Part shown: positions 1-7,271 of the stretch, one piece after another
Layout of the letters: the number at the start of each line of letters is the position of its first letter
How positions within the stretch are numbered: position 1 is the stretch's first letter
IMG/VR virus record: IMGVR_UViG_2548876942_000003
Coordinates: 1 to 7,271 of that record
Reading direction: 5' to 3' (one strand)
Source: a virus
Taxonomy: Duplodnaviria; Heunggongvirae; Uroviricota; Caudoviricetes
DNA: 7,271 nucleotides
Made by a program: the position numbers and the translations under genes
The notes under the pieces: generated by a model
The model's database searches: none
Told to the model about the DNA's origin: nothing
The model's input: only the letters and a program-made list of their open reading frames with translations

Positions 1-345
1 ATTTTTCTTTCCAAAATCAGACCCCACATTTAATAAGACAGCATGATTTATTAATTATCTAAAAATCTCTGCAATGATATTGTATTACATAAATCTTCAA
101 ATAACATTAATCATTCTATCTTGAAACTTGTCTTAAACAAGATTACCTCTTTACTCTGCTGAGTCAAACAGCCTAGCCCACTCACTTGTATCACTCATCT
201 TTAACATCGCAGCGTAGTTTCTAACTGGAGCATACCGAATATGACCGCTATTAACATTATGCCGTAACTGCATATTTAGATATTGGATTAGGGGCATCGC
301 GCTGACAGAACTCAAATGCGGGCTCTTTGCCGCCCGCCCCCGCAG

Positions 346-389
346 AATCACGCTATCCGACGCAACCAGCTGCGACGGATAGCGTGATT
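346..389. terminator. Strong stem-loop 5 nt beyond the gene A stop codon; possible terminator or RNA-stabilising hairpin
   Basis: Seen in sequence: perfect 14-bp inverted repeat AATCACGCTATCCG (346-359) / CGGATAGCGTGATT (376-389), with an inner 4-bp stem CGCA/TGCG (361-364/371-374) and 6-nt loop. On the + strand it is followed by TTAATTCATTCTTT (moderately T-rich); on the - strand it is followed by G/C-rich sequence, so a U-tract exists only for rightward transcription. Function is inferred. Confidence 0.4.
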
Positions 390-393
390 TAAT

Positions 394-3006
394 TCATTCT
401 TTAGGGTAGCGACCTTCCGCACCCGCCAGCATTTTTTGATATTCCCCGACCGGATCAAACCGCAGGTGCGTGGCATCAATGCCGTGGTTATCCCGTAAAT
501 GTTCCCATAATTTATTCACCGTCCGTGACTCATTAGGTAATTGACGCGTTATCAACTGGCCGCCAGCACTGGCTTGATAAAATTTCCCGCCAATCTCCAG
601 ACGGCTCCCCATTAACAGCGAAACGGCCTGAATCTCTGAAATCTCAACCAAACACAACGCCGCATCAGCCAGCAGACTGGCAACCGCAGGGGCAAGCGCT
701 GCCCGCCTGGCTTTATCAGCCACCGATCTGGCCTCGGTTTTTTCCACGGCAGAACGCCAGGCAACATCTAATTCGCTCCCTGGTTCATAAGGTGATCCGC
801 TGTGCCGCCTTTTGAATGGTGCTTCACGTAGTCGCCGTATCAATTTGCGCCGCGTTGGCTGGTCCATATTTTCAAAATCGACGATTTCCTCTTCTGATTC
901 TTCTGTAATACCCTCCACACCAGGCGAAAAATCGGTGATTTTTTCGTCTTCCGTAGAGTTATTGACAGAACTCCAAGCGTCGCCGGTTGGCGACGGCAAA
1001 AGGTCAACCCCCAAACCGGGGCCGCTTTTGGCCCCAGTGACGGTTTTGGATTTGGCTCGAATTTTCCACTTAACCAGACGGGTGCAAATACGGGAGGCAT
1101 CCCCCAGACGCGGCGACCAGACCCCGAAAACCTTTTCGGGGATCTCACAATAAGCATTCATTTCATCAGCGGGCTGATAGGCCAGACGTACGACATAGTT
1201 TTCTCGCGGGATCAAAACACCACCCTGGCGGATGATGTAAGTAGCAAAGCATCCGACATCGGCAGCGGCGCAAACCGCATCCATTGCAGGATCCACAAGC
1301 AATGGCGCACCACGTTTGAAGGTACTGTCAATTTTCTGTCGGGTCGTGATCTGATTACTAAGTTTGCGCAGCTCGCGGTAAACCGATATGGGCGGCTGTC
1401 CGATGGGCTGAAACTGGCGGATACGGTGAAGCGATGCCCAGGCCATTGCATATTTGGCGCTTTCATTCAGCGGCTTGCCGCTTTCGTCGTCCAGTTCACC
1501 GGCCAGCGCGTGGCCGTCGATATTCTTCGAAATGTATTTAGCGATGTATGCCGTTGCTGACCCTTTCCGTGGGTCCATTTTTTTTGACTTGAAACGAGCG
1601 CCGGTATTGCGGCCCAGCTCGTCGCGGTCTTCCGCAATGAAGTAGGTGCGAAGGATCGCAACCGTGGCTTTGACTTGCTCTTGTGGCATAAACAGCAACG
1701 CGTGCCAGTGTGGTGTCCCATCGTGATGCGGCTCGGCGACACGGAAGCCATAAGGGCGCAAATCTTCGCGTTTCAGTTTGGCGGTTGCCCGGTTCCACAC
1801 ACGGCATAAATAGCACTGCGCCTGGGCGACGGTGGAATGATTCCATTTGGCGTTATGGTGGCCGGATGCAATATTACTGTGATATTTCGACGGGCAAGTG
1901 ATTGTCAGGAAGATGCCAACATCGCCGCGACTTTGGGCAACAAGCTCAACCCCAGCCATTCGGGCCATAAGCTCATGGCGACGAATAGCCGGGTTTGACG
2001 TGGATTTATTAATCATGTCCTCAAGTGAGGAAACGTTGCCGTCTTCGTCTACCAGTTCATGACTTTTGAAAAAATCCCGGTTTTTACGGCGCTGTTCCTG
2101 CCACTCGATCAGGCTGGAAGCGCTAACGTATGCGTGCGCTTTTTTATTTACCGCGCCAACGGCTCGCAGCTGGTTTTCGCGCCAGTCACAACGCAGGCGC
2201 CAGATTTTGCGCCCCCACCAGTCAGGCGAAGCCATACGCAAAATGGCCGTACATATCCGATCACGTTCCCACGGCGCATACCATGCAGGCGGCACAATGC
2301 GAAGCGCCAGCATTTCGCGGCCCAGATGACAATAAAGCCAGTCCAGTTCTTCGACGTTCATGTCGGAAACATTCTGTCCCAGGGCTTCGCATTCCGTCCC
2401 CAGCATTTCAGCCATGCGGCTGGCGATCTCATTAGCGGCGCTTAGTGCTTCCCGCTTTGTGAAATCAGCCAGCCGTTGCCAGCGCCCGAACCAGTACGCG
2501 GCCAGTTCGCCGGTGATATCAGGCGAAACACCTTGCCTTGTGCGCACAACATCAAGACGCAGCAATGATTTTTTCACTGTCCCCATAAGAAAATCATTGG
2601 TGTGTCTGGTTTCACGGTTGACCCGTAACCACTCAATTTTTTTACGCCAGACTTCACGAATGAAGAACGGCTCTGATAATAAACGTGCTTCGACACCTTC
2701 TGGCGTATTGGCCCAGGCTGCCGCCGTGGCTTTAGCGGCTTCCATTTCTTGCCGGATTATATTTTGATGGGCGGCCAGTGGCAGGCCGCATGGTTCGTAC
2801 CTGTCCAGCGCCTGGATGAGCGCATCACGGTCACGAACTTCGGCGGGATTGTAACCGGCACGTTTGAAGATGTGATCGATATGTTTTTTTACGGCAGGAT
2901 GATGCGCCACCGCCCCAGCAAGCGGGGCGATTTTTTTCGGTTCATAGATGTACGGGCCAACAGCTGGACGCGGTGCGTTCCAAGGCCATGCGAAAGCGTT
3001 AGTCAT
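394..3006 (-). CDS. A: Phage replication initiation endonuclease gpA (HUH rolling-circle initiator, P2 gene A family)
   Basis: 870-codon ORF with ATG at 3006-3004 and TGA at 396-394. The translation contains a HUH-type metal-binding motif (PHWHALLF, encoded about 1700-1713) and a paired-tyrosine active-site motif (YIAKYISK, encoded about 1534-1548) of the phiX174 gpA / P2 gpA type. Position at the end of the cox-led early operon matches P2 gene order. The ORF is longer than the P2 gpA length I recall (about 760 aa), so the exact start is less certain than the identity. Confidence 0.9.
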   Translation of the reverse strand: MTNAFAWPWNAPRPAVGPYIYEPKKIAPLAGAVAHHPAVKKHIDHIFKRAGYNPAEVRDRDALIQALDRYEPCGLPLAAHQNIIRQEMEAAKATAAAWANTPEGVEARLLSEPFFIREVWRKKIEWLRVNRETRHTNDFLMGTVKKSLLRLDVVRTRQGVSPDITGELAAYWFGRWQRLADFTKREALSAANEIASRMAEMLGTECEALGQNVSDMNVEELDWLYCHLGREMLALRIVPPAWYAPWERDRICTAILRMASPDWWGRKIWRLRCDWRENQLRAVGAVNKKAHAYVSASSLIEWQEQRRKNRDFFKSHELVDEDGNVSSLEDMINKSTSNPAIRRHELMARMAGVELVAQSRGDVGIFLTITCPSKYHSNIASGHHNAKWNHSTVAQAQCYLCRVWNRATAKLKREDLRPYGFRVAEPHHDGTPHWHALLFMPQEQVKATVAILRTYFIAEDRDELGRNTGARFKSKKMDPRKGSATAYIAKYISKNIDGHALAGELDDESGKPLNESAKYAMAWASLHRIRQFQPIGQPPISVYRELRKLSNQITTRQKIDSTFKRGAPLLVDPAMDAVCAAADVGCFATYIIRQGGVLIPRENYVVRLAYQPADEMNAYCEIPEKVFGVWSPRLGDASRICTRLVKWKIRAKSKTVTGAKSGPGLGVDLLPSPTGDAWSSVNNSTEDEKITDFSPGVEGITEESEEEIVDFENMDQPTRRKLIRRLREAPFKRRHSGSPYEPGSELDVAWRSAVEKTEARSVADKARRAALAPAVASLLADAALCLVEISEIQAVSLLMGSRLEIGGKFYQASAGGQLITRQLPNESRTVNKLWEHLRDNHGIDATHLRFDPVGEYQKMLAGAEGRYPKE

Positions 3007-3893
3007 TCACATATGCCCGTAGAAGTCGCAACCTTGAGAATACCGATCACCTCACTGGCGGCCCCTCGGGTAATGGCGTTCGCGCTGACAGAACGGTTAA
3101 CGCTAATTTCCTGGAAGTTGAAAGAGCGATAAATCTCGCAGGTGGCTGGGGTGTCGCTATTGGACAGGATCACCGGCGAACCAGTAAGGCGGTTAATATC
3201 CAGCAGAGCGGCAGCTAACTGGCGATGCTCTTTAATCCCAAACGGGGCGGTGTGGTATTGGGTGAAATTAGCGGTTTCGCTTGTTGGCAGGTATGGCGGA
3301 TCGCAATAGATAACCGCGTCACTACCAATCATGATTTTTAACGTGCTCTGGAAATCGCAGCACACGAAAATAGCTTTCGTGTCGTTAGCTTTTTCAGAGA
3401 ATAAACGGATTTGTTCTTCCGGGAAGTAAAGCGGGGTTTTGTGACGCCCAAAGGGAACGTTATATCCACCCTGTTGGTTGTAGCGTACTACGCCGTTATA
3501 TCCGTGACGGTTCAGGTAAAGAAATTGTGCTGCACGAAGAATCTTGCCCGCGTCCGGCCCATCTTCAAACACACTGCGCAATGACAGTAGGTCACGGGCG
3601 CGGGCGTTGAAATCATCGCGGATCCACTTATAGCCGTCTTTATCGCCGTACACTTTAAACAGTGGGCGAGCAGCGTCGATCACCGCATCAGGCCAGCGGG
3701 TTATCTGGCGATACAGGTTAATTAAATCTGGGTTGATATCACCCAGGATATAACGGCGATATTCAGTATTGAGGAAAACAGAAGCACCGCCGACAAACGG
3801 TTCCACCAGGCAATCGGCTTTCGGCAGAATCGGCAGCAAATCAGGCATAACGCGGCCTTTACCACCGGGCCATTTAACGAGAGATCGAATCAT
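3003..3893 (-). CDS. dam: DNA adenine methyltransferase, Dam family (N6-adenine, likely GATC-specific)
   Basis: 296-aa ORF with ATG at 3893-3891. N-terminal WPGGK motif, SAM-binding EPFVGGASVF (FxGxG) and catalytic DPPY motif (VIYCDPPYLPTS), plus extended similarity to E. coli Dam as recalled from memory. Shine-Dalgarno GGAGAAAG lies upstream. The stop codon overlaps the gene A start (ATGA, 3003-3006), implying translational coupling. GATC specificity is inferred from family membership. Confidence 0.9.
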   Translation of the reverse strand: MIRSLVKWPGGKGRVMPDLLPILPKADCLVEPFVGGASVFLNTEYRRYILGDINPDLINLYRQITRWPDAVIDAARPLFKVYGDKDGYKWIRDDFNARARDLLSLRSVFEDGPDAGKILRAAQFLYLNRHGYNGVVRYNQQGGYNVPFGRHKTPLYFPEEQIRLFSEKANDTKAIFVCCDFQSTLKIMIGSDAVIYCDPPYLPTSETANFTQYHTAPFGIKEHRQLAAALLDINRLTGSPVILSNSDTPATCEIYRSFNFQEISVNRSVSANAITRGAASEVIGILKVATSTGICE

Positions 3894-3963
3894 TTTTACT
3901 TTCTCCAGGGTGCAAGAAGCCCGACGCGTTAGCGCCTGTTTCTTTTTTGTGGGTAGTTAGTTG

Positions 3964-4353
3964 TTAATTTACTGCGTTATCTGGCGCGGGTGGTTTGTCG
4001 CGTATCGCCTGAATTTCGGCGCGTGGTGCGGCGTAGTCCTCAAATTCCCACGGCATTGATGCTGCAAATTCGGAAAGGCGCTTAATGCCCATCAAAAGGC
4101 ACGTTTGCTCCTTTTCGGTTAGATTTTCGTAAGTACAACCCAGCTGTTTGGCGGTCAGCTTCGGCATTCCGGCTATGTATCTGGACGCATCGTTTGCCAG
4201 GATGAAAATCACCTTTTTACAGGCATCATCCAGGCGGTTAAAACGGGTTGCAGTGTCGTTCACGCGTGAGACGTTCAAACTTGCTTGCAGTCGAGCCCGT
4301 TGCTCTAAGAACTGGCGACGGCCTGGCTGTTGTCCTGTCTTATCCATCAACAT
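3964..4353 (-). CDS. Hypothetical early-operon protein (about 129 aa), function unknown
   Basis: ORF in the early-operon orientation. The ORF track begins at a GTG (4359); I prefer the ATG at 4353-4351, which is preceded by GGGGAGGTGG with good spacing. Tightly packed, 15 nt after the stop of the upstream ORF. No motif I can recognise. Confidence 0.55.
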   Translation of the reverse strand: MLMDKTGQQPGRRQFLEQRARLQASLNVSRVNDTATRFNRLDDACKKVIFILANDASRYIAGMPKLTAKQLGCTYENLTEKEQTCLLMGIKRLSEFAASMPWEFEDYAAPRAEIQAIRDKPPAPDNAVN

Positions 4354-4368
4354 AACCACCTCCCCGAA

Positions 4369-4662
4369 CTACGCAAAGATGCCCATTAAGCGGGAAAACC
4401 AGCGGCGCTTATTACGCGGGCGCGACATAAACGGTACACGGCAGTTTTTAACAAATTGAACATCTGCCGCTTTAGGCTGGAAGAACCGCCCGTCCGGGGT
4501 TTCAATCCAGCCGCGTTGATGCTGACGGTGGGTGATCTGCTGGCCGTGGGTGAGCAGGCTGGCGAGTGAAGGGCACTGTGTTAAGTCCATGTTGATCTCC
4601 GTCATATTGAAAAGATGCCGGGATATAACCCCACGCCCGGCACGTGTTTCCTGTGATAACAT
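4369..4662 (-). CDS. Hypothetical small early-operon protein (97 aa from ATG 4662; alternatively 73 aa from ATG 4590)
   Basis: ORF in the early-operon orientation. The ATG at 4662 has only a weak AGG upstream; the internal in-frame ATG at 4590-4588 is preceded by GGAG with a 6-nt spacer and may be the true start. Basic, Arg-rich C-terminus (RPRNKRRWFSR). No recognisable domain. Confidence 0.45.
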   Translation of the reverse strand: MLSQETRAGRGVISRHLFNMTEINMDLTQCPSLASLLTHGQQITHRQHQRGWIETPDGRFFQPKAADVQFVKNCRVPFMSRPRNKRRWFSRLMGIFA

Positions 4663-4728
4663 CGCTATGCCTGTGTAACTTTGAGCAGTGAATCAGGCAT
4701 AACAATCACCAACACAGAAGGAGTTGTA

Positions 4729-5208
4729 ATGAAATTCAATGTGTTTTTTAAAAAAGACCACGGATCACACTGGGTACTTTCCGATGGTTCCCCCCTCTTT
4801 GAAAGTCCACTATTTGAAACAAGACCTAAAGCCATTGATGACCTTGAGAACTTTGTAGGCCTTATGGAATCGCCAATTTTTATTAAGGCTGGTGACGATA
4901 TTAATTCTGGCGATACAGAAAACTGTCCATCTGTAGTTATTTCTTTAAAACAGCATGAATCGCTATGGGGCTGGGAGTTATTTATCTCAAAAAATGGACA
5001 ACTGTCTAAAGTTACCGAAAGTTCAGGTAATGGCTTTGACTCATTAGAATTAGCAAAGCAAAGTGCCCAGTTTTTTATTAATGCCATTATCGACGCTCCT
5101 ATTCTGGATCAAGCCGATGTCGCTATCCCCGGTATGCACTTCTCAAAATCTTTCGAGGAAACGCACCACATTGGTGACATTCACCCATCCAGTAAATGGT
5201 TCAAATAA
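4729..5208 (+). CDS. Moron-like protein with tandem YegP/DUF1508-like repeats (159 aa), encoded antisense to the early operon
   Basis: The track ORF 4681-5208 starts at TTG; the in-frame ATG at 4729 is preceded by a strong Shine-Dalgarno (GAAGGAG, 6-nt spacer). The region is visibly AT-rich (about 37-40% G+C by hand count of a sample) versus more than 50% in A and dam. The translation shows two repeats whose hydrophobic pattern resembles the YegP/DUF1508 repeat as I recall it (KFNVFFKKDHGSHWVLSDGSPLFESP...AIDDLENFV and WGWELFISKNGQLSKVTESSGNGFDSLELAKQSAQFFINAI). The family assignment is from memory, not a search. Confidence 0.55.
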   Translation: MKFNVFFKKDHGSHWVLSDGSPLFESPLFETRPKAIDDLENFVGLMESPIFIKAGDDINSGDTENCPSVVISLKQHESLWGWELFISKNGQLSKVTESSGNGFDSLELAKQSAQFFINAIIDAPILDQADVAIPGMHFSKSFEETHHIGDIHPSSKWFK

Positions 5209-5212
5209 TCCA

Positions 5213-5560
5213 TCACTGCGGCGTTATCGTTTTTCTTGTGCGAGGTGGAACATCTCGCACGGTTTCTTCATCAACCATCAACTCATAAATTCTGATGCTG
5301 TTATCACCGTTTGATACGTCATCAAATACCTGAAAAAGAAAACTCATGAACTGCTCATAAGTGACGCTAGGTTCAACATACCCACCAGTAACCTCAATTA
5401 ACGGTGTTAGCCCTGAATTATCTGCTAAAGAAACGCAGTCCAACTTATCCAAACGGAAAAAGTAATTACCGCAAGGCGTTCTTTTGTCCTTAATCCGTAT
5501 AAATACATTTGATAACGCTGTATGACTATCTGAGAGCTTAAAGATTTTTGCCGTGTCCAT
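5213..5560 (-). CDS. Hypothetical AT-rich early protein (115 aa) immediately downstream of cox
   Basis: ORF with ATG at 5560-5558, 22 nt after the cox stop codon, same strand as the early operon. AT-rich like the neighbouring plus-strand gene. No recognisable domain, signal peptide or transmembrane segment in the translation. Its stop (5213-5215) lies 4 bp from the stop of the convergent plus-strand gene. Confidence 0.5.
   Translation of the reverse strand: MDTAKIFKLSDSHTALSNVFIRIKDKRTPCGNYFFRLDKLDCVSLADNSGLTPLIEVTGGYVEPSVTYEQFMSFLFQVFDDVSNGDNSIRIYELMVDEETVRDVPPRTRKTITPQ
5238..5268 (+). terminator. Candidate intrinsic terminator for the plus-strand moron gene
   Basis: 7-bp GC-rich inverted repeat GTGCGAG (5238-5244) / CTCGCAC (5254-5260) with a 9-nt loop, followed by GGTTTCTT. 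It begins 30 nt after the TAA of the 4729-5208 gene. A T-tract is present only on the + strand. Short stem and interrupted T-run, so weak. Confidence 0.3.
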
Positions 5561-5582
5561 TTTATTCAGCCCTGTAAGTTGC

Positions 5583-5858
5583 TTATGATGGATTGCCCAG
5601 ACCCAACCACATTAACCACCCTTCCCTAATTTCCTTGGGACGACTCTCATACGCCATTTTCATTCCGTTGTTCCAGGCTGGGAGGTAGACCCAGTACTCA
5701 CCTGCCCGCCCTGAAGTTGATTGCGGATCAGTCATCTCAACTACGGGTAGCTTTCCTTTTTCAATCATTCCCCTTACTGCTGCCGGTGTTTTGCCGATCA
5801 GTTTTGCAAACTCCTGGTACGGGACAGCATCACTAATACTGACAACTTGTTTGCTCAT
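5583..5858 (-). CDS. cox: Cox-type excisionase / lytic-switch repressor of Pc (P2 Cox family)
   Basis: 91-aa ORF, the same length as P2 Cox, with close similarity to the P2 Cox sequence as recalled (PYQEFAKLIGK...GKLPV..MTDPQS.SGRAGEYWVYLPAWNNG...YESRPKEIR.GWLMWLGLG). Shine-Dalgarno GAGGT lies 7 nt upstream of the ATG at 5858. Divergent from the C repressor gene, as in P2. Confidence 0.9.
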   Translation of the reverse strand: MSKQVVSISDAVPYQEFAKLIGKTPAAVRGMIEKGKLPVVEMTDPQSTSGRAGEYWVYLPAWNNGMKMAYESRPKEIREGWLMWLGLGNPS

Positions 5859-5981
5859 CTGCTAACCTCGTATCTAGATCTAACCAATGGGTTTCAAAGT
5901 TCTTTAATGGGCTTTGATGCACATTGACAACATCTAAAACCACATTAGAGAGTTTCGATAATATTAGAGGATCTTGATAAC
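5859..5981. promoter_or_regulatory. cox-C divergent intergenic switch region (Pe/Pc, operator region)
   Basis: 123-bp spacer between the divergent cox and C start codons. Besides the Pe elements it contains a plus-strand perfect TTGACA (5924-5929), a plus-strand TTTAAT (5903-5908) that could serve as the Pc -10 in a face-to-face arrangement, overlapping palindromes ATCTAGAT / TAGATCTA (5873-5883) that include a GATC, and one Cox-box-like TTAAAG on the minus strand (about 5902-5907). Pc cannot be placed uniquely from sequence alone. Confidence 0.6.
5944..5969. promoter_or_regulatory. Direct repeats ATTAGAG flanking the Pe -10 region; candidate C-repressor operator half-sites
   Basis: ATTAGAG occurs at 5944-5950 and 5963-5969 (extended ATTAGAGAG / ATTAGAGGA), 19 bp apart. 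One copy overlaps the candidate Pe -10 and the other lies just downstream of the predicted start. P2 C is known to bind direct repeats flanking the Pe -10; the assignment here is by analogy. Confidence 0.4.
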
Positions 5982-5988
5982 ATGTCAA
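5954..5988 (-). promoter_or_regulatory. Candidate early promoter Pe (sigma70-type) driving cox and the early operon
   Basis: Seen in sequence on the minus strand: perfect -35 TTGACA (plus-strand TGTCAA, 5983-5988, overlapping the first codons of C), a 16-bp spacer, and -10 TAATAT (plus-strand ATATTA, 5961-5966). Predicted start is near 5954, giving a leader of about 95 nt to the cox ATG. A GATC (5970-5973) sits in the spacer. Assignment as Pe is by analogy to the P2 switch. Confidence 0.5.
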
Positions 5989-6281
5989 CGCCCATAAGCG
6001 AAAAACTAGCGTTAGTTCGTGAGTCTGAGCGACTAAACCGGAAGCAATTCGCTGAAATAACAGGAGTTCCTTACAGTTCTCTAACTTATTATGAGAGCGG
6101 AAGAACTACGCCCCCCACTGACGTAACAATGAAAATTCTCCAGCACCCCAGATTTAGCAAATACACGTTGTGGTTTATGACCGATCAGGTTGCTCCCGAA
6201 GCCGGTCAGATAGCACCGGCCCTCGCACACTTTGGGCAAGATGTAACAACATCGCAGCACTCAGACCAAAAGATTGGTTAA
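5982..6281 (+). CDS. C: Immunity repressor C (P2 C family, 99 aa)
   Basis: 99-aa ORF, the same length as P2 C, with strong similarity to P2 C as recalled (ISEK..L.R.SE.L.R.Q.A..TGVPY..L.YYESGR.TPPTDV.M.ILQ.P.F.KYTLWFMT.Q.APE.GQIAPALAHFGQ). Shine-Dalgarno AGAGGA upstream. Divergent from cox and followed by int, as in P2. Confidence 0.9.
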   Translation: MSTPISEKLALVRESERLNRKQFAEITGVPYSSLTYYESGRTTPPTDVTMKILQHPRFSKYTLWFMTDQVAPEAGQIAPALAHFGQDVTTSQHSDQKIG

Positions 6282-6318
6282 CCATTCACCAGGCGCATCT
6301 TTATTACAAAATTTGTTT

Positions 6319-6350
6319 ACTTGTTGCCAAATACAACAAGCACAACAAGT
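6319..6350 (+). repeat. Inverted plus direct repeats in the C-int spacer (possible attenuator or protein-binding site)
   Basis: ACTTGTTG (6319-6326) is the reverse complement of CAACAAGT (6343-6350), an 8-bp stem with a 16-nt loop. ACAACAAG is directly repeated at 6333-6340 and 6342-6349. Followed by a short TTTGTG. Lies in the 145-bp A/C-rich spacer between C and int. Confidence 0.3.
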
Positions 6351-6426
6351 TTGTGAAATCTAAGCGCAAGGGAAAATTAACAGCAGCAAAGAAAACACAA
6401 CCTAGCACCATTCATTTGGGGGTCTT

Positions 6427-7233
6427 ATGACAATTAAGAAACTCGATGATGGTCGTTATGAAGTGGACATCAGACCTGCAGGGCGCAACGGAAAGCGCAT
6501 CCGCAGGAAATTTGACAAGAAAAGTGAGGCTGTAGCTTTTGAGAAACACACTCAATACAACCATCACGATAAAGAATGGTTGGCTAAACCGACAGATAAG
6601 CGGCATCTGTCTGAATTAACGAAAGTCTGGTGGGATCTGAAAGGCAAGCATGAAGAACACGGAAAATCTAATTTGGGTAAGATTGAAATCTTTACCCGGA
6701 TCACTGATGACCCTTGCGCGTTCCAGATAACCAAAGCGCTTATTAGCCAGTACAGCATGACTCGCAGAGGGCAAGGCATAAAACCGGCCAGTATTAACCG
6801 CGATCTTACCTGCCTGAGTGGTATGTTTACTGCGCTAATTGATGCGGAATTGTTCTTTGGTGAACATCCTTTCAGAGGGATGAAAAAGCTCAAGGAGCAG
6901 AAACCAGAAACCGGCTATCTGACGCAGGAAGAAATAACATTGTTGCTTGCCAATCTTGACGGGGACAACAAGAAAATCGCGATTCTCTGTTTAAGTACCG
7001 GCGCTCGATGGGGTGAGGCCGCGAAACTGAAAGCTGAGAACGTAATACAGAATCGGGTGACGTTCGTTAAAACAAAGACGAACAAACCGCGTACTGTCCC
7101 TATCTCTGAGGAAGTGGCTGTAATGATTGCGGGTAAAGGTTATCTGTTCCCTGATGCCTCATACCCGAAGTTCAGGCGAACAATGAAAGATGTAAAACCA
7201 GATCTACCGGACGGGCGTAAGCGTACAGCCTGA
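6427..7233 (+). CDS. int: P2-type tyrosine integrase, N-terminal 268 codons only; the C-terminal catalytic region (HxLRH box and active-site Tyr) is not encoded before the in-frame stop, so likely truncated or disrupted
   Basis: ATG at 6427. The translation matches the P2 Int N-terminal and core-binding region as recalled (MTIKKLDDGRYEVDIRPAGRNGKRIRRKFDKKSEAVAFEK ... LSTGARWGEAAKLKAEN ... VTFVKTKTNKPRTVPIS) up to ...KPDLP (about 7213). It then diverges and hits TGA at 7231-7233. P2 Int is 337 aa, and none of the three forward frames after 7210 encodes an HxLRH-like motif. Confidence 0.75.
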   Translation: MTIKKLDDGRYEVDIRPAGRNGKRIRRKFDKKSEAVAFEKHTQYNHHDKEWLAKPTDKRHLSELTKVWWDLKGKHEEHGKSNLGKIEIFTRITDDPCAFQITKALISQYSMTRRGQGIKPASINRDLTCLSGMFTALIDAELFFGEHPFRGMKKLKEQKPETGYLTQEEITLLLANLDGDNKKIAILCLSTGARWGEAAKLKAENVIQNRVTFVKTKTNKPRTVPISEEVAVMIAGKGYLFPDASYPKFRRTMKDVKPDLPDGRKRTA

Positions 7234-7271
7234 ACCGTCTGGTCAGAATCTGACGAATTAGACAAAGTGGT

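Follow-up and report, generated by a model that had tools for sequence, protein, structure and literature searches.

The old, tin and Z/fun genes of phage P2 are lysogenic-conversion or exclusion genes, and a moron is marked by its own promoter, its own terminator and a deviating GC content. In phages lambda and P22, the prophage exclusion gene sieB is accompanied by a self-immunity product that is expressed from the lytic operon and encoded by esc, which lies in frame inside sieB. In the txpA/RatA and bsrG/SR4 pairs of Bacillus subtilis, the toxin is a small hydrophobic peptide and the antitoxin is a non-coding RNA. Here, we analyse a 7,271-nucleotide (nt) stretch of viral DNA (IMG/VR record IMGVR_UViG_2548876942_000003, positions 1 to 7,271; Caudoviricetes), referred to below as the window. 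These 7.3 kb form the integrase-proximal end of a P2-like Escherichia coli prophage. Our subject is one open reading frame (ORF), ORF159 (4729-5208, plus strand; 159 amino acids, aa; WP_000671519.1, phrog_9021), together with its convergent partner orf115 (5213-5560, minus strand; WP_000379073.1, phrog_10410), which runs in the same direction as the early operon. The overall explanation that we favour, and to which we give about an even chance, is that ORF159 is the cargo of a moron-type cassette lying in reverse orientation within the early lytic operon of P2-like prophages of Enterobacterales.

The comparative evidence strongly supports ORF159 as a genuine protein-coding gene under purifying selection. 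It begins with ATG, 5 nt behind a Shine–Dalgarno sequence, GAAGGAG (4717-4723, plus strand), which is itself preceded by a C/A-rich unstructured spacer; AAGGAG or AGGAG is kept in the homologous leaders. The gene is flanked by Fil and by orf115/Cox and faces the early promoter Pe, and in the NCBI annotation of identical E. coli prophages it is a hypothetical protein, WP_000671519.1. The ratio of non-synonymous to synonymous substitution against its homologues is 0.13-0.23, and position 2 of the codon is the least variable in the plus frame. Close homologues number 19, at 52-99% identity, and an exhaustive profile search of 1.84 billion representative proteins returned 24 matches, two of which were repetitive false positives, leaving 22; the homologues and cluster representatives are all about 150-177 aa long. 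Relatives were absent from a genome-contig scan and from viral scans made with the single protein. The initial annotation had proposed a real gene opposite in strand to the early operon and had set aside an overlapping minus-strand ORF (4665-5087, 140 aa) as antisense noise, and both proposals are borne out.

The converse, that the minus-strand ORF is a real gene read from the Pe transcript and ORF159 its shadow, is extremely improbable. This ORF does have AGGAG 8 nt ahead of its ATG at 5087, and the corresponding antisense frame stays open over a long stretch in seven of eight loci. However, conserved Ala-Pro codons of ORF159 give rise to the AGGAG on the opposite strand, and the openness is reproduced when the synonymous codons of the plus gene are shuffled: the fraction of shuffles with as few stops as the minus frame was 0.07-1.0 across the eight loci, by which selection on the minus-strand ORF was rejected. 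The minus frame shares its wobble positions with the plus frame, whose second position varies least; it has no family match in Pfam or PHROG, and one locus (L009) has nine stops in the antisense frame.

That ORF159 has its own sigma-70 extended -10 promoter is predicted from conservation, and strongly so. In an alignment of 14 diverged loci, T4654, G4655, T4657, A4658 and T4662 are invariant and are the sole invariant columns between two leader hairpins. They are the key positions of the element TGaTAACAT (4654-4662, plus strand; TG at 4654-4655, hexamer at 4657-4662), which has no -35 match; the pattern TGnTAnnnT is also retained in leaders ahead of unrelated cargo genes. Transcription would start at about 4667-4670. 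Two weak extended -10 candidates had been put forward earlier; the first (4652-4660) coincides with the invariant positions and is thereby validated, whereas the second (4672-4680) falls in a hairpin loop and is unconserved. The 9-mer TGATAACAT stands at 4654-4662, as the extended -10 element, and again at 5975-5983, just before and into the start codon of the repressor gene C. Control of ORF159 by the C repressor through this repeat was considered and set down as probable chance, because other loci lack the motif and the operators presumed for C are unrelated apart from it. A LexA box upstream was rejected too, with a single CTG...CAG pair at a spacing of 12 nt instead of 10.

The promoter is framed by conserved secondary structures. 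Hairpin 1, or helix A (4616-4642; arms 4616-4622 and 4636-4642, GCCGGG...CCCGGC), stands just upstream of it, folds with -12.4 kcal/mol on the plus strand and -15.0 kcal/mol on the minus strand, and occurs in all leader copies, with 94% of cells paired and one compensatory pair (GC to AU/UA). It is unlikely to be a protein-binding inverted repeat, since its loop ranges from 8 to 13 nt in length and its spacing from the -10 element from 7 to 12 nt. Helix B (4632-4646; arms 4632-4635, CACG, and 4643-4646, CGTG) has a loop formed by the 3' arm of hairpin 1. Across 21 distinct leaders, Watson–Crick runs averaged 4.5 base pairs (bp) with a leader's own arms, as against 2.15 bp with arms mixed between leaders, and at least eight distinct arm sequences are each matched by their own partner; CCATG/CATGG, ACGTG/CACGT, GCGTG/CACGC, GTGTG/CACAC and CCCTG/CAGGG are among those seen elsewhere in the 21-leader alignment (A10). 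In several loci a T run follows helix B, which was flagged as terminator-like in L151. As the connecting segment is just 0-2 nt, helices A and B cannot coexist; helix B thus either replaces hairpin 1 as an alternative fold or is a palindrome that spans the -35/spacer region. Hairpin 2 (4666-4701, plus strand; arms 4666-4673 and 4694-4701, TATGCCTG...CAGGCATA) is located where the ORF159 mRNA is predicted to begin, or close to that point. Both sides have changed in six of its eight pairs, 93% of cells are paired, and it is kept in the centroid fold. For the two-helix structure as a whole, the observed covariation was reached by none of 500 shuffles. The evidence on the acting strand is divided: wobble pairs split four against four, the folding energies are mixed, and the complementary strand of hairpin 2 folds even better in the window (z-score -4.3). 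No Rfam family matched anywhere in the window at E<=10.

At the other end of the gene, an intrinsic, one-way terminator for ORF159 is strongly supported by comparative data (5236-5272, plus strand). It consists of a 12-bp stem (5236-5262) followed by TTTCTTCATC and sits within the last codons of orf115, where on the minus strand it encodes the residues T-V-R-D-V-P-P-R-T. The hairpin has a z-score of -2.2 on the plus strand versus -0.8 on the minus strand, whose tail is A-rich. Hairpin and T-rich tail are kept in nine related loci, with an AT/GC exchange and with G.T pairs that pair solely on the plus strand, and distant loci (e.g. L030) have unrelated hairpins at the equivalent place. Since the terminator arms are the Val-Arg and Arg-Thr codons of a conserved C-terminal motif of orf115, the stretch is under two constraints at once. 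The near-invariant T-V-R...R-T motif, at residues 100-108, is encoded by the arms GTGCG/CGCAC, and the RNA structure on the other strand, rather than the orf115 protein, may be what keeps it conserved. The conserved plus-strand terminator also led us to reject read-through from ORF159 into C and int as a pE-like establishment transcript.

Promoter-leader, ORF159, terminator and convergent orf115 together make up an accessory cassette of about 1 kb (4591-5582) between fil and cox. The GC content is 37-45% from 4700 to 5560, against about 52% in the flanking early genes. In Salmonella phage SI7, cox is directly followed by fil and the cassette is absent; the fil-to-A region is common to both, and homology to SI7 ends at about 4575 of the window. 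The low GC content, the absence from SI7 and the context indicate that the cassette was inserted in the early operon. It thus has the properties of a moron: a predicted promoter and a terminator of its own, a deviating GC content and patchy presence. This agrees with the layout that the initial annotation had expected of a lysogen-expressed accessory gene, as do the conserved extended -10 element and leader. What goes beyond that annotation is the apparently obligate convergent partner, the predicted terminator embedded in it and the promoter-leader that appears to be portable. We regard the gene and its transcription-unit architecture, as read from the DNA, as very probably correct.

The same cassette is found at different positions in other P2-like early regions. 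In all 15 distinct loci examined, ORF159 or its homologue belongs to a P2-like early region and runs opposite to cox and the replication genes, in the direction of C and int; its position in the operon and the type of replication module differ. The loci come from E. coli, Citrobacter, Serratia, Proteus, Hafnia and several metagenomic contigs. Beyond these, the family is represented in Kluyvera, Yersinia, Erwinia and Salmonella, and its homologues occur only in P2-like prophages of Enterobacterales. The stretch 4600-5300, which holds ORF159 and its flanks, has a full-length match of 100% identity in 12 complete E. coli genomes and a match of at least 99% identity in 19 of 5426, six of them over just 93% of its length. 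One strain with the identical prophage is E. coli GN06156 (NZ_CP095529.1, around 3,029,075-3,029,554). A convergent neighbour of the orf115 family is present in 14 of the 15 loci (11 by BLAST and three more by hidden Markov model, HMM, with E values of 5e-7 to 7e-4), and the database homologues of orf115 are on the contigs that also provided those of ORF159. The stop codons of the two genes range from 20 nt apart to 8 nt overlapping, and orf115 is the more conserved. In L025 (3646-4600) the cassette has decayed: behind the leader stands another gene, of 78 aa, the ORF159 homologue is open only over its last 42 codons, and the orf115 homologue has broken into two ORFs.

This near-strict co-occurrence is why we read ORF159 and orf115 as a functional pair, and the joint decay of both genes in L025 was counted for the pairing. 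The early promoter Pe (5961-5988, minus strand; TTGACA 5988-5983, 16-nt spacer, TAATAT 5966-5961) is near consensus, and its placement relative to C and Cox matches the layout of the P2 switch. Its transcript is predicted to run antisense through ORF159, and orf115, which shares the direction of the early operon, is predicted to be expressed from it. In a lysogen, Pe would be repressed by C, leaving the cassette promoter free to fire and ORF159 to be made. Upon derepression, the strong Pe would transcribe through ORF159 from the other side and lower its output by polymerase collision and antisense pairing; the firing of Pe would also express orf115, and the two partners would be made in opposite states. 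The promoter type and orientation make such lysogen-biased expression of ORF159 reasonably probable. ORF159 may then be a lysogen-phase factor for superinfection exclusion, defence or protection of the prophage, and orf115 a lytic-phase counter-factor that relieves ORF159 for the phage's own growth. This defence-plus-antidote function is put forward tentatively, as a possibility with less than an even chance. The location gives it some context: the cassette lies outside the main described P2 hotspot (gpA to portal), in the int-to-gpA interval, which has been reported just as a minor defence hotspot of P2-like prophages, with 8% of their systems (PMC13586616).

The same convergent pairing could also be turned around. 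If orf115 were a host-toxic early takeover protein, constitutive ORF159 might neutralize leaky orf115, either as a protein or through a 3'-overlapping antisense RNA as in type I toxin–antitoxin systems. The convergent 3' ends abut or overlap and the ORF159 terminator lies about 55 nt inside orf115, which would suit such an addiction or antidote role, as would the near-strict co-occurrence, the stronger conservation of orf115 and the adjacent fil, which belongs to a known cell-division inhibitor family. However, orf115 lacks the features of a membrane protein or a toxin and has no match to a toxin family, and in L025 both genes have decayed and not the toxin alone; the truncated orf115 alleles described below are neutral evidence. 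We consider an antidote role for ORF159 quite unlikely.

The promoter-leader itself has a wider distribution than its ORF159 cargo. A DNA pattern scan, the matches of which were mostly due to chance, was filtered with a covariance model built from the promoter-leader. The complete arrangement of hairpin 1, TGnTAnnnT, hairpin 2, CA-rich spacer and Shine–Dalgarno sequence recurs in other P2-like contigs (designated by L numbers) with unrelated cargo. Copies are at L102 10624-10733, L149 6476-6586, L151 1280-1390 (minus strand), L080 7069-7185, L130 6784-6876 (minus strand), L148 11747-11864 and L089 3300-3412 (minus strand), and L109 has three within 1.5 kb (2469-2574, 3062-3171 and 3790-3881). 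The cargo comprises peptides of 28-36 residues, a 155-aa protein, a 90-aa protein, and a peptide combined with a hydrophobic 159-aa protein. Peptide genes begin at L102 10731, at L149 6584 and at about L109 3172, and one runs from L151 1282 down to 1196 on the minus strand; these peptides have the motif (D/N)xFHV(P/L)x(K/R)PxP followed by an acidic tail, as in MSDTDKFHVPRKPAPSPEKGKGGEEDED. The 159-aa protein in L151 (710-1189, minus strand), which follows the peptide gene and has hydrophobic segments, is unrelated to ORF159. In every case the module is oriented along C and int and against the early operon, including at sites between Pe and cox. The leader is kept while the cargo varies, which argues that the promoter-leader is a portable module. 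Homologues of orf115 accompany ORF159-type cargo only; the link between ORF159 and orf115 is thus specific and no by-product of the module.

A further reading combines these observations. P2-like phages would own an undescribed portable module that places diverse cargo backwards in the early operon, switched on in the lysogen and off by Pe; its parts would be two mutually exclusive upstream helices, an extended -10 element, a covarying leader hairpin, a CA-rich spacer and a Shine–Dalgarno sequence. One such cargo, ORF159 with orf115, would form a new two-component system: a diverged YegP-fold protein would act in the lysogen, in exclusion or defence, and be disarmed by its early-operon partner so that the phage itself can grow. 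Taken as a whole, this combination is rather doubtful.

In an alternative reading, the cassette serves chiefly as a regulatory brake. Its promoter, constitutive and directed against Pe, together with an mRNA fully antisense to the Pe transcript, might damp leaky transcription before fil, dam and A and so stabilize lysogeny, the protein being secondary; interference between convergent promoters is a known feature of the P2/186 switch. No locus and no cargo type departs from the one orientation, the module carries unrelated cargos, and the promoter-leader is more conserved than the cargo, as in L008 and L031, where the leaders are nearly identical and the proteins only about 34% identical. Nevertheless, we judge a brake unlikely to be the main role: ORF159 is under clear purifying selection with invariant residues, the one-way terminator halts the plus transcript after the gene and before cox, and the specific pairing with orf115 would be left unexplained.

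The product of ORF159 was then compared with the YegP/DUF1508 family, to which the initial annotation had likened it as a tandem repeat. It has no Pfam family at E<=1, and the HMM check against DUF1508 (PF07411) failed to give a match at E<=10 in any of 18 family members, although the relatives of E. coli YegP, used as a positive control, do carry PF07411. A profile search of the sequences in the Protein Data Bank (PDB) gave nothing at E<=10. The structural evidence is more favourable. An AlphaFold (AF2) model built from 18 sequences has a predicted local distance difference test score of 85 and shows two beta-beta-beta-alpha units followed by a C-terminal extension, in keeping with the DUF1508 repeat of about 50 residues, in which three beta strands precede a helix. 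UPF0339/DUF1508 structures rank top in the fold comparison. The repeats are homologous to each other: residues 1-50 align with 68-124 at an HHalign probability of 94.2% (P = 1.1e-7; family alignment). Against a small DUF1508 profile, which we built ourselves from seven repeats of solved structures, the whole family scored 58% (P = 1e-4) and repeat 1 scored 85% (P = 6e-6), aligned along the entire repeat. The linker between the repeats (residues ~54-67) is variable and modelled with low confidence. The C-terminal extension (~123-159, ~37 residues) contains D127, F138, the invariant D150 and P153 and the near-invariant H152, which form a D-x-H-P motif.

These results strongly support a small acidic cytoplasmic protein (isoelectric point, pI, 5.0) predicted to contain two diverged DUF1508/YegP-like repeats and a family-specific extension. 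Since a Pfam match is lacking, yet the fold and repeat 1 fit, ORF159 appears to be DUF1508-like in fold and not a member recognizable by sequence. The earlier family call is thus supported only in part: the two homologous repeats, the fold and repeat 1 speak for it, and the Pfam match and repeat 2 fail. As regards the family itself, DUF1508/YegP genes have been found downstream of DNA-damage-responsive regulators and beside immune operons (PMC13373217), and tandem DUF1508 has been proposed as a sensor domain in Menshen (PMC12065111). In PHROGs, ORF159 and orf115 match solely families of unknown function; neither is homologous to a known toxin or antitoxin family, and a literature search found no mention of their accessions or PHROG identifiers.

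Tandem DUF1508 has also been proposed to resemble the PC4/Whirly single-strand binders (PMC12065111), and this likeness bears on another alternative: that ORF159 acts in the phage's own lysis–lysogeny decision or in prophage maintenance, by antagonizing Cox or the replication initiator or by binding single-stranded DNA at the origin, and has no action on other phages. The gene is on the lysogenic strand of the switch-proximal early region, it comes right after cII in 186-like loci, and in other phages the module is found between Pe and cox, reading toward C. All of this would suit a role in the switch. On the other hand, the protein is acidic, its own terminator separates ORF159 from C and int, close relatives with a complete switch lack the cassette, and its presence in only 19 of 5426 complete E. 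coli genomes marks it as rare, accessory and not core. In our view, a part in the phage's own switch is distinctly improbable.

Returning to the favoured explanation of a reverse-oriented moron-type cassette, several points weigh against it. It is predicted from sequence and not from transcript, protein or phenotype; the start and activity of the promoter, in particular, are read from conservation. As for the protein, a Foldseek comparison of the ORF159 model with the PDB gave nothing significant, and repeat 2 had no match to the small DUF1508 profile (3%, P = 0.015). Given the acidity of ORF159 (pI 5.0), it would be unsafe to extend to this protein the nucleic-acid binding suggested for tandem DUF1508. 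Neither ORF159 nor orf115 had a match in NCBIfam or PADLOC (PADLOC-DB 2.0, none at E<=1), and the orf115 model shows a weak PH/PTB-like similarity. As for the pairing, the 186-like Hafnia prophage (L013/L014) is an exception in which the neighbour is cII instead of orf115. Furthermore, six complete E. coli genomes have an IS3-family element in the terminator/orf115 3' end (at ~5252) beside an intact ORF159; in E. coli O45:H2 FWSEC0003 (L002), for example, the element spans 4695-5908 and orf115 is cut to 104 aa (WP_000379072.1, L002 5960-6274). Such alleles indicate that orf115 is not needed for the lysogen to tolerate ORF159. Finally, a tblastn search with ORF159 and orf115 found no match among 50,697 sequenced phage records, so that the carrier prophages may not all be functional. 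Should none of the readings be true, ORF159 would be an ordinary hypothetical prophage gene.

The remaining features of the window agree with its place in a P2-like prophage, at the end next to the integrase. On the plus strand are the genes for the C repressor (5982-6281) and for the integrase (from 6427); Cox (5583-5858), Fil (4369-4590), orf131, the Dam methylase and the replication endonuclease A are on the minus strand. Two 19-bp direct repeats, at 5944-5962 (ATTAGAGAGTTTCGATAAT) and 5963-5981 (ATTAGAGGATCTTGATAAC), flank the -10 element of Pe, an arrangement expected of P2-type C repressor operators, and are presumed to serve as such. A mechanical ORF list gives a longer form of Fil (4369-4662, minus strand; 97 aa), which starts at 4662 and would cross hairpin 1 and the ORF159 promoter. 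As annotated, Fil has 73 aa and starts at 4590 with GGAG in front, and the Pfam match in the long form starts only at residue 31; the long form is probably unused. In L013/L014 (6668-6755, 7001-7495), where the ORF159 homologue comes right after cII, a weak leader copy (27.8 bits) lies ~245 nt upstream of the annotated start. In the E. coli genomes that carry the 4600-5300 stretch, the prophage adjoins chromosomal yegR (L001 9099-9416). Its name resembles that of YegP, but no yegP gene is present in the annotated flank or in the window, and the location has no bearing on the family call.

The locus would offer a function-testable example of the DUF1508/YegP fold, the role of which is still unknown even though it recurs beside immune operons. 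It also points to a hiding place for accessory genes in P2-like prophages, within the early operon and facing backwards, and the shared promoter-leader could be a search handle for more such cargo genes. The convergent layout would be a compact natural switch, in which Pe being off or on decides which of the paired genes is expressed. The most interesting outcome would be a conserved, portable, backward-facing expression module together with a specifically paired convergent gene.

Comparison with the described systems shows what is shared at this locus and what is distinct. With YegP/UPF0339/DUF1508 (PF07411; PDB entries 2K8E, 2K49, 3BID and 6Q2Z), ORF159 shares the repeat fold and the tandem duplication, which is also seen in SO_3888; it differs in the missing Pfam match, the too-diverged repeat 2, the variable linker, its acidity, the C-terminal D-x-H-P extension that YegP lacks, and its confinement to P2-like prophages. 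Like the P2 morons old, tin and Z/fun, the ORF159 cassette is a low-GC accessory insertion with a terminator and a predicted promoter of its own, and it is patchy in relatives. Unlike them, it lies inside the early operon and against it and not at the gpA-to-portal or tail-gene hotspots, and it has an obligate convergent early-operon partner; ORF159 is not homologous to old, tin or fun, nor does it match a PADLOC model. The logic of sieB/esc, in which a lysogen-expressed factor is combined with a lytic-operon product that spares the phage itself, is similar to what we propose for ORF159/orf115; however, these are two separate convergent genes with no sequence or fold relation to sieB/esc. As in txpA/RatA and bsrG/SR4, the two transcription units are convergent, their 3' ends overlap and one terminator lies within the other gene, so that antisense pairing is built in. 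In contrast to those systems, ORF159 and orf115 both encode conserved soluble proteins, of 159 and 115 aa, respectively.

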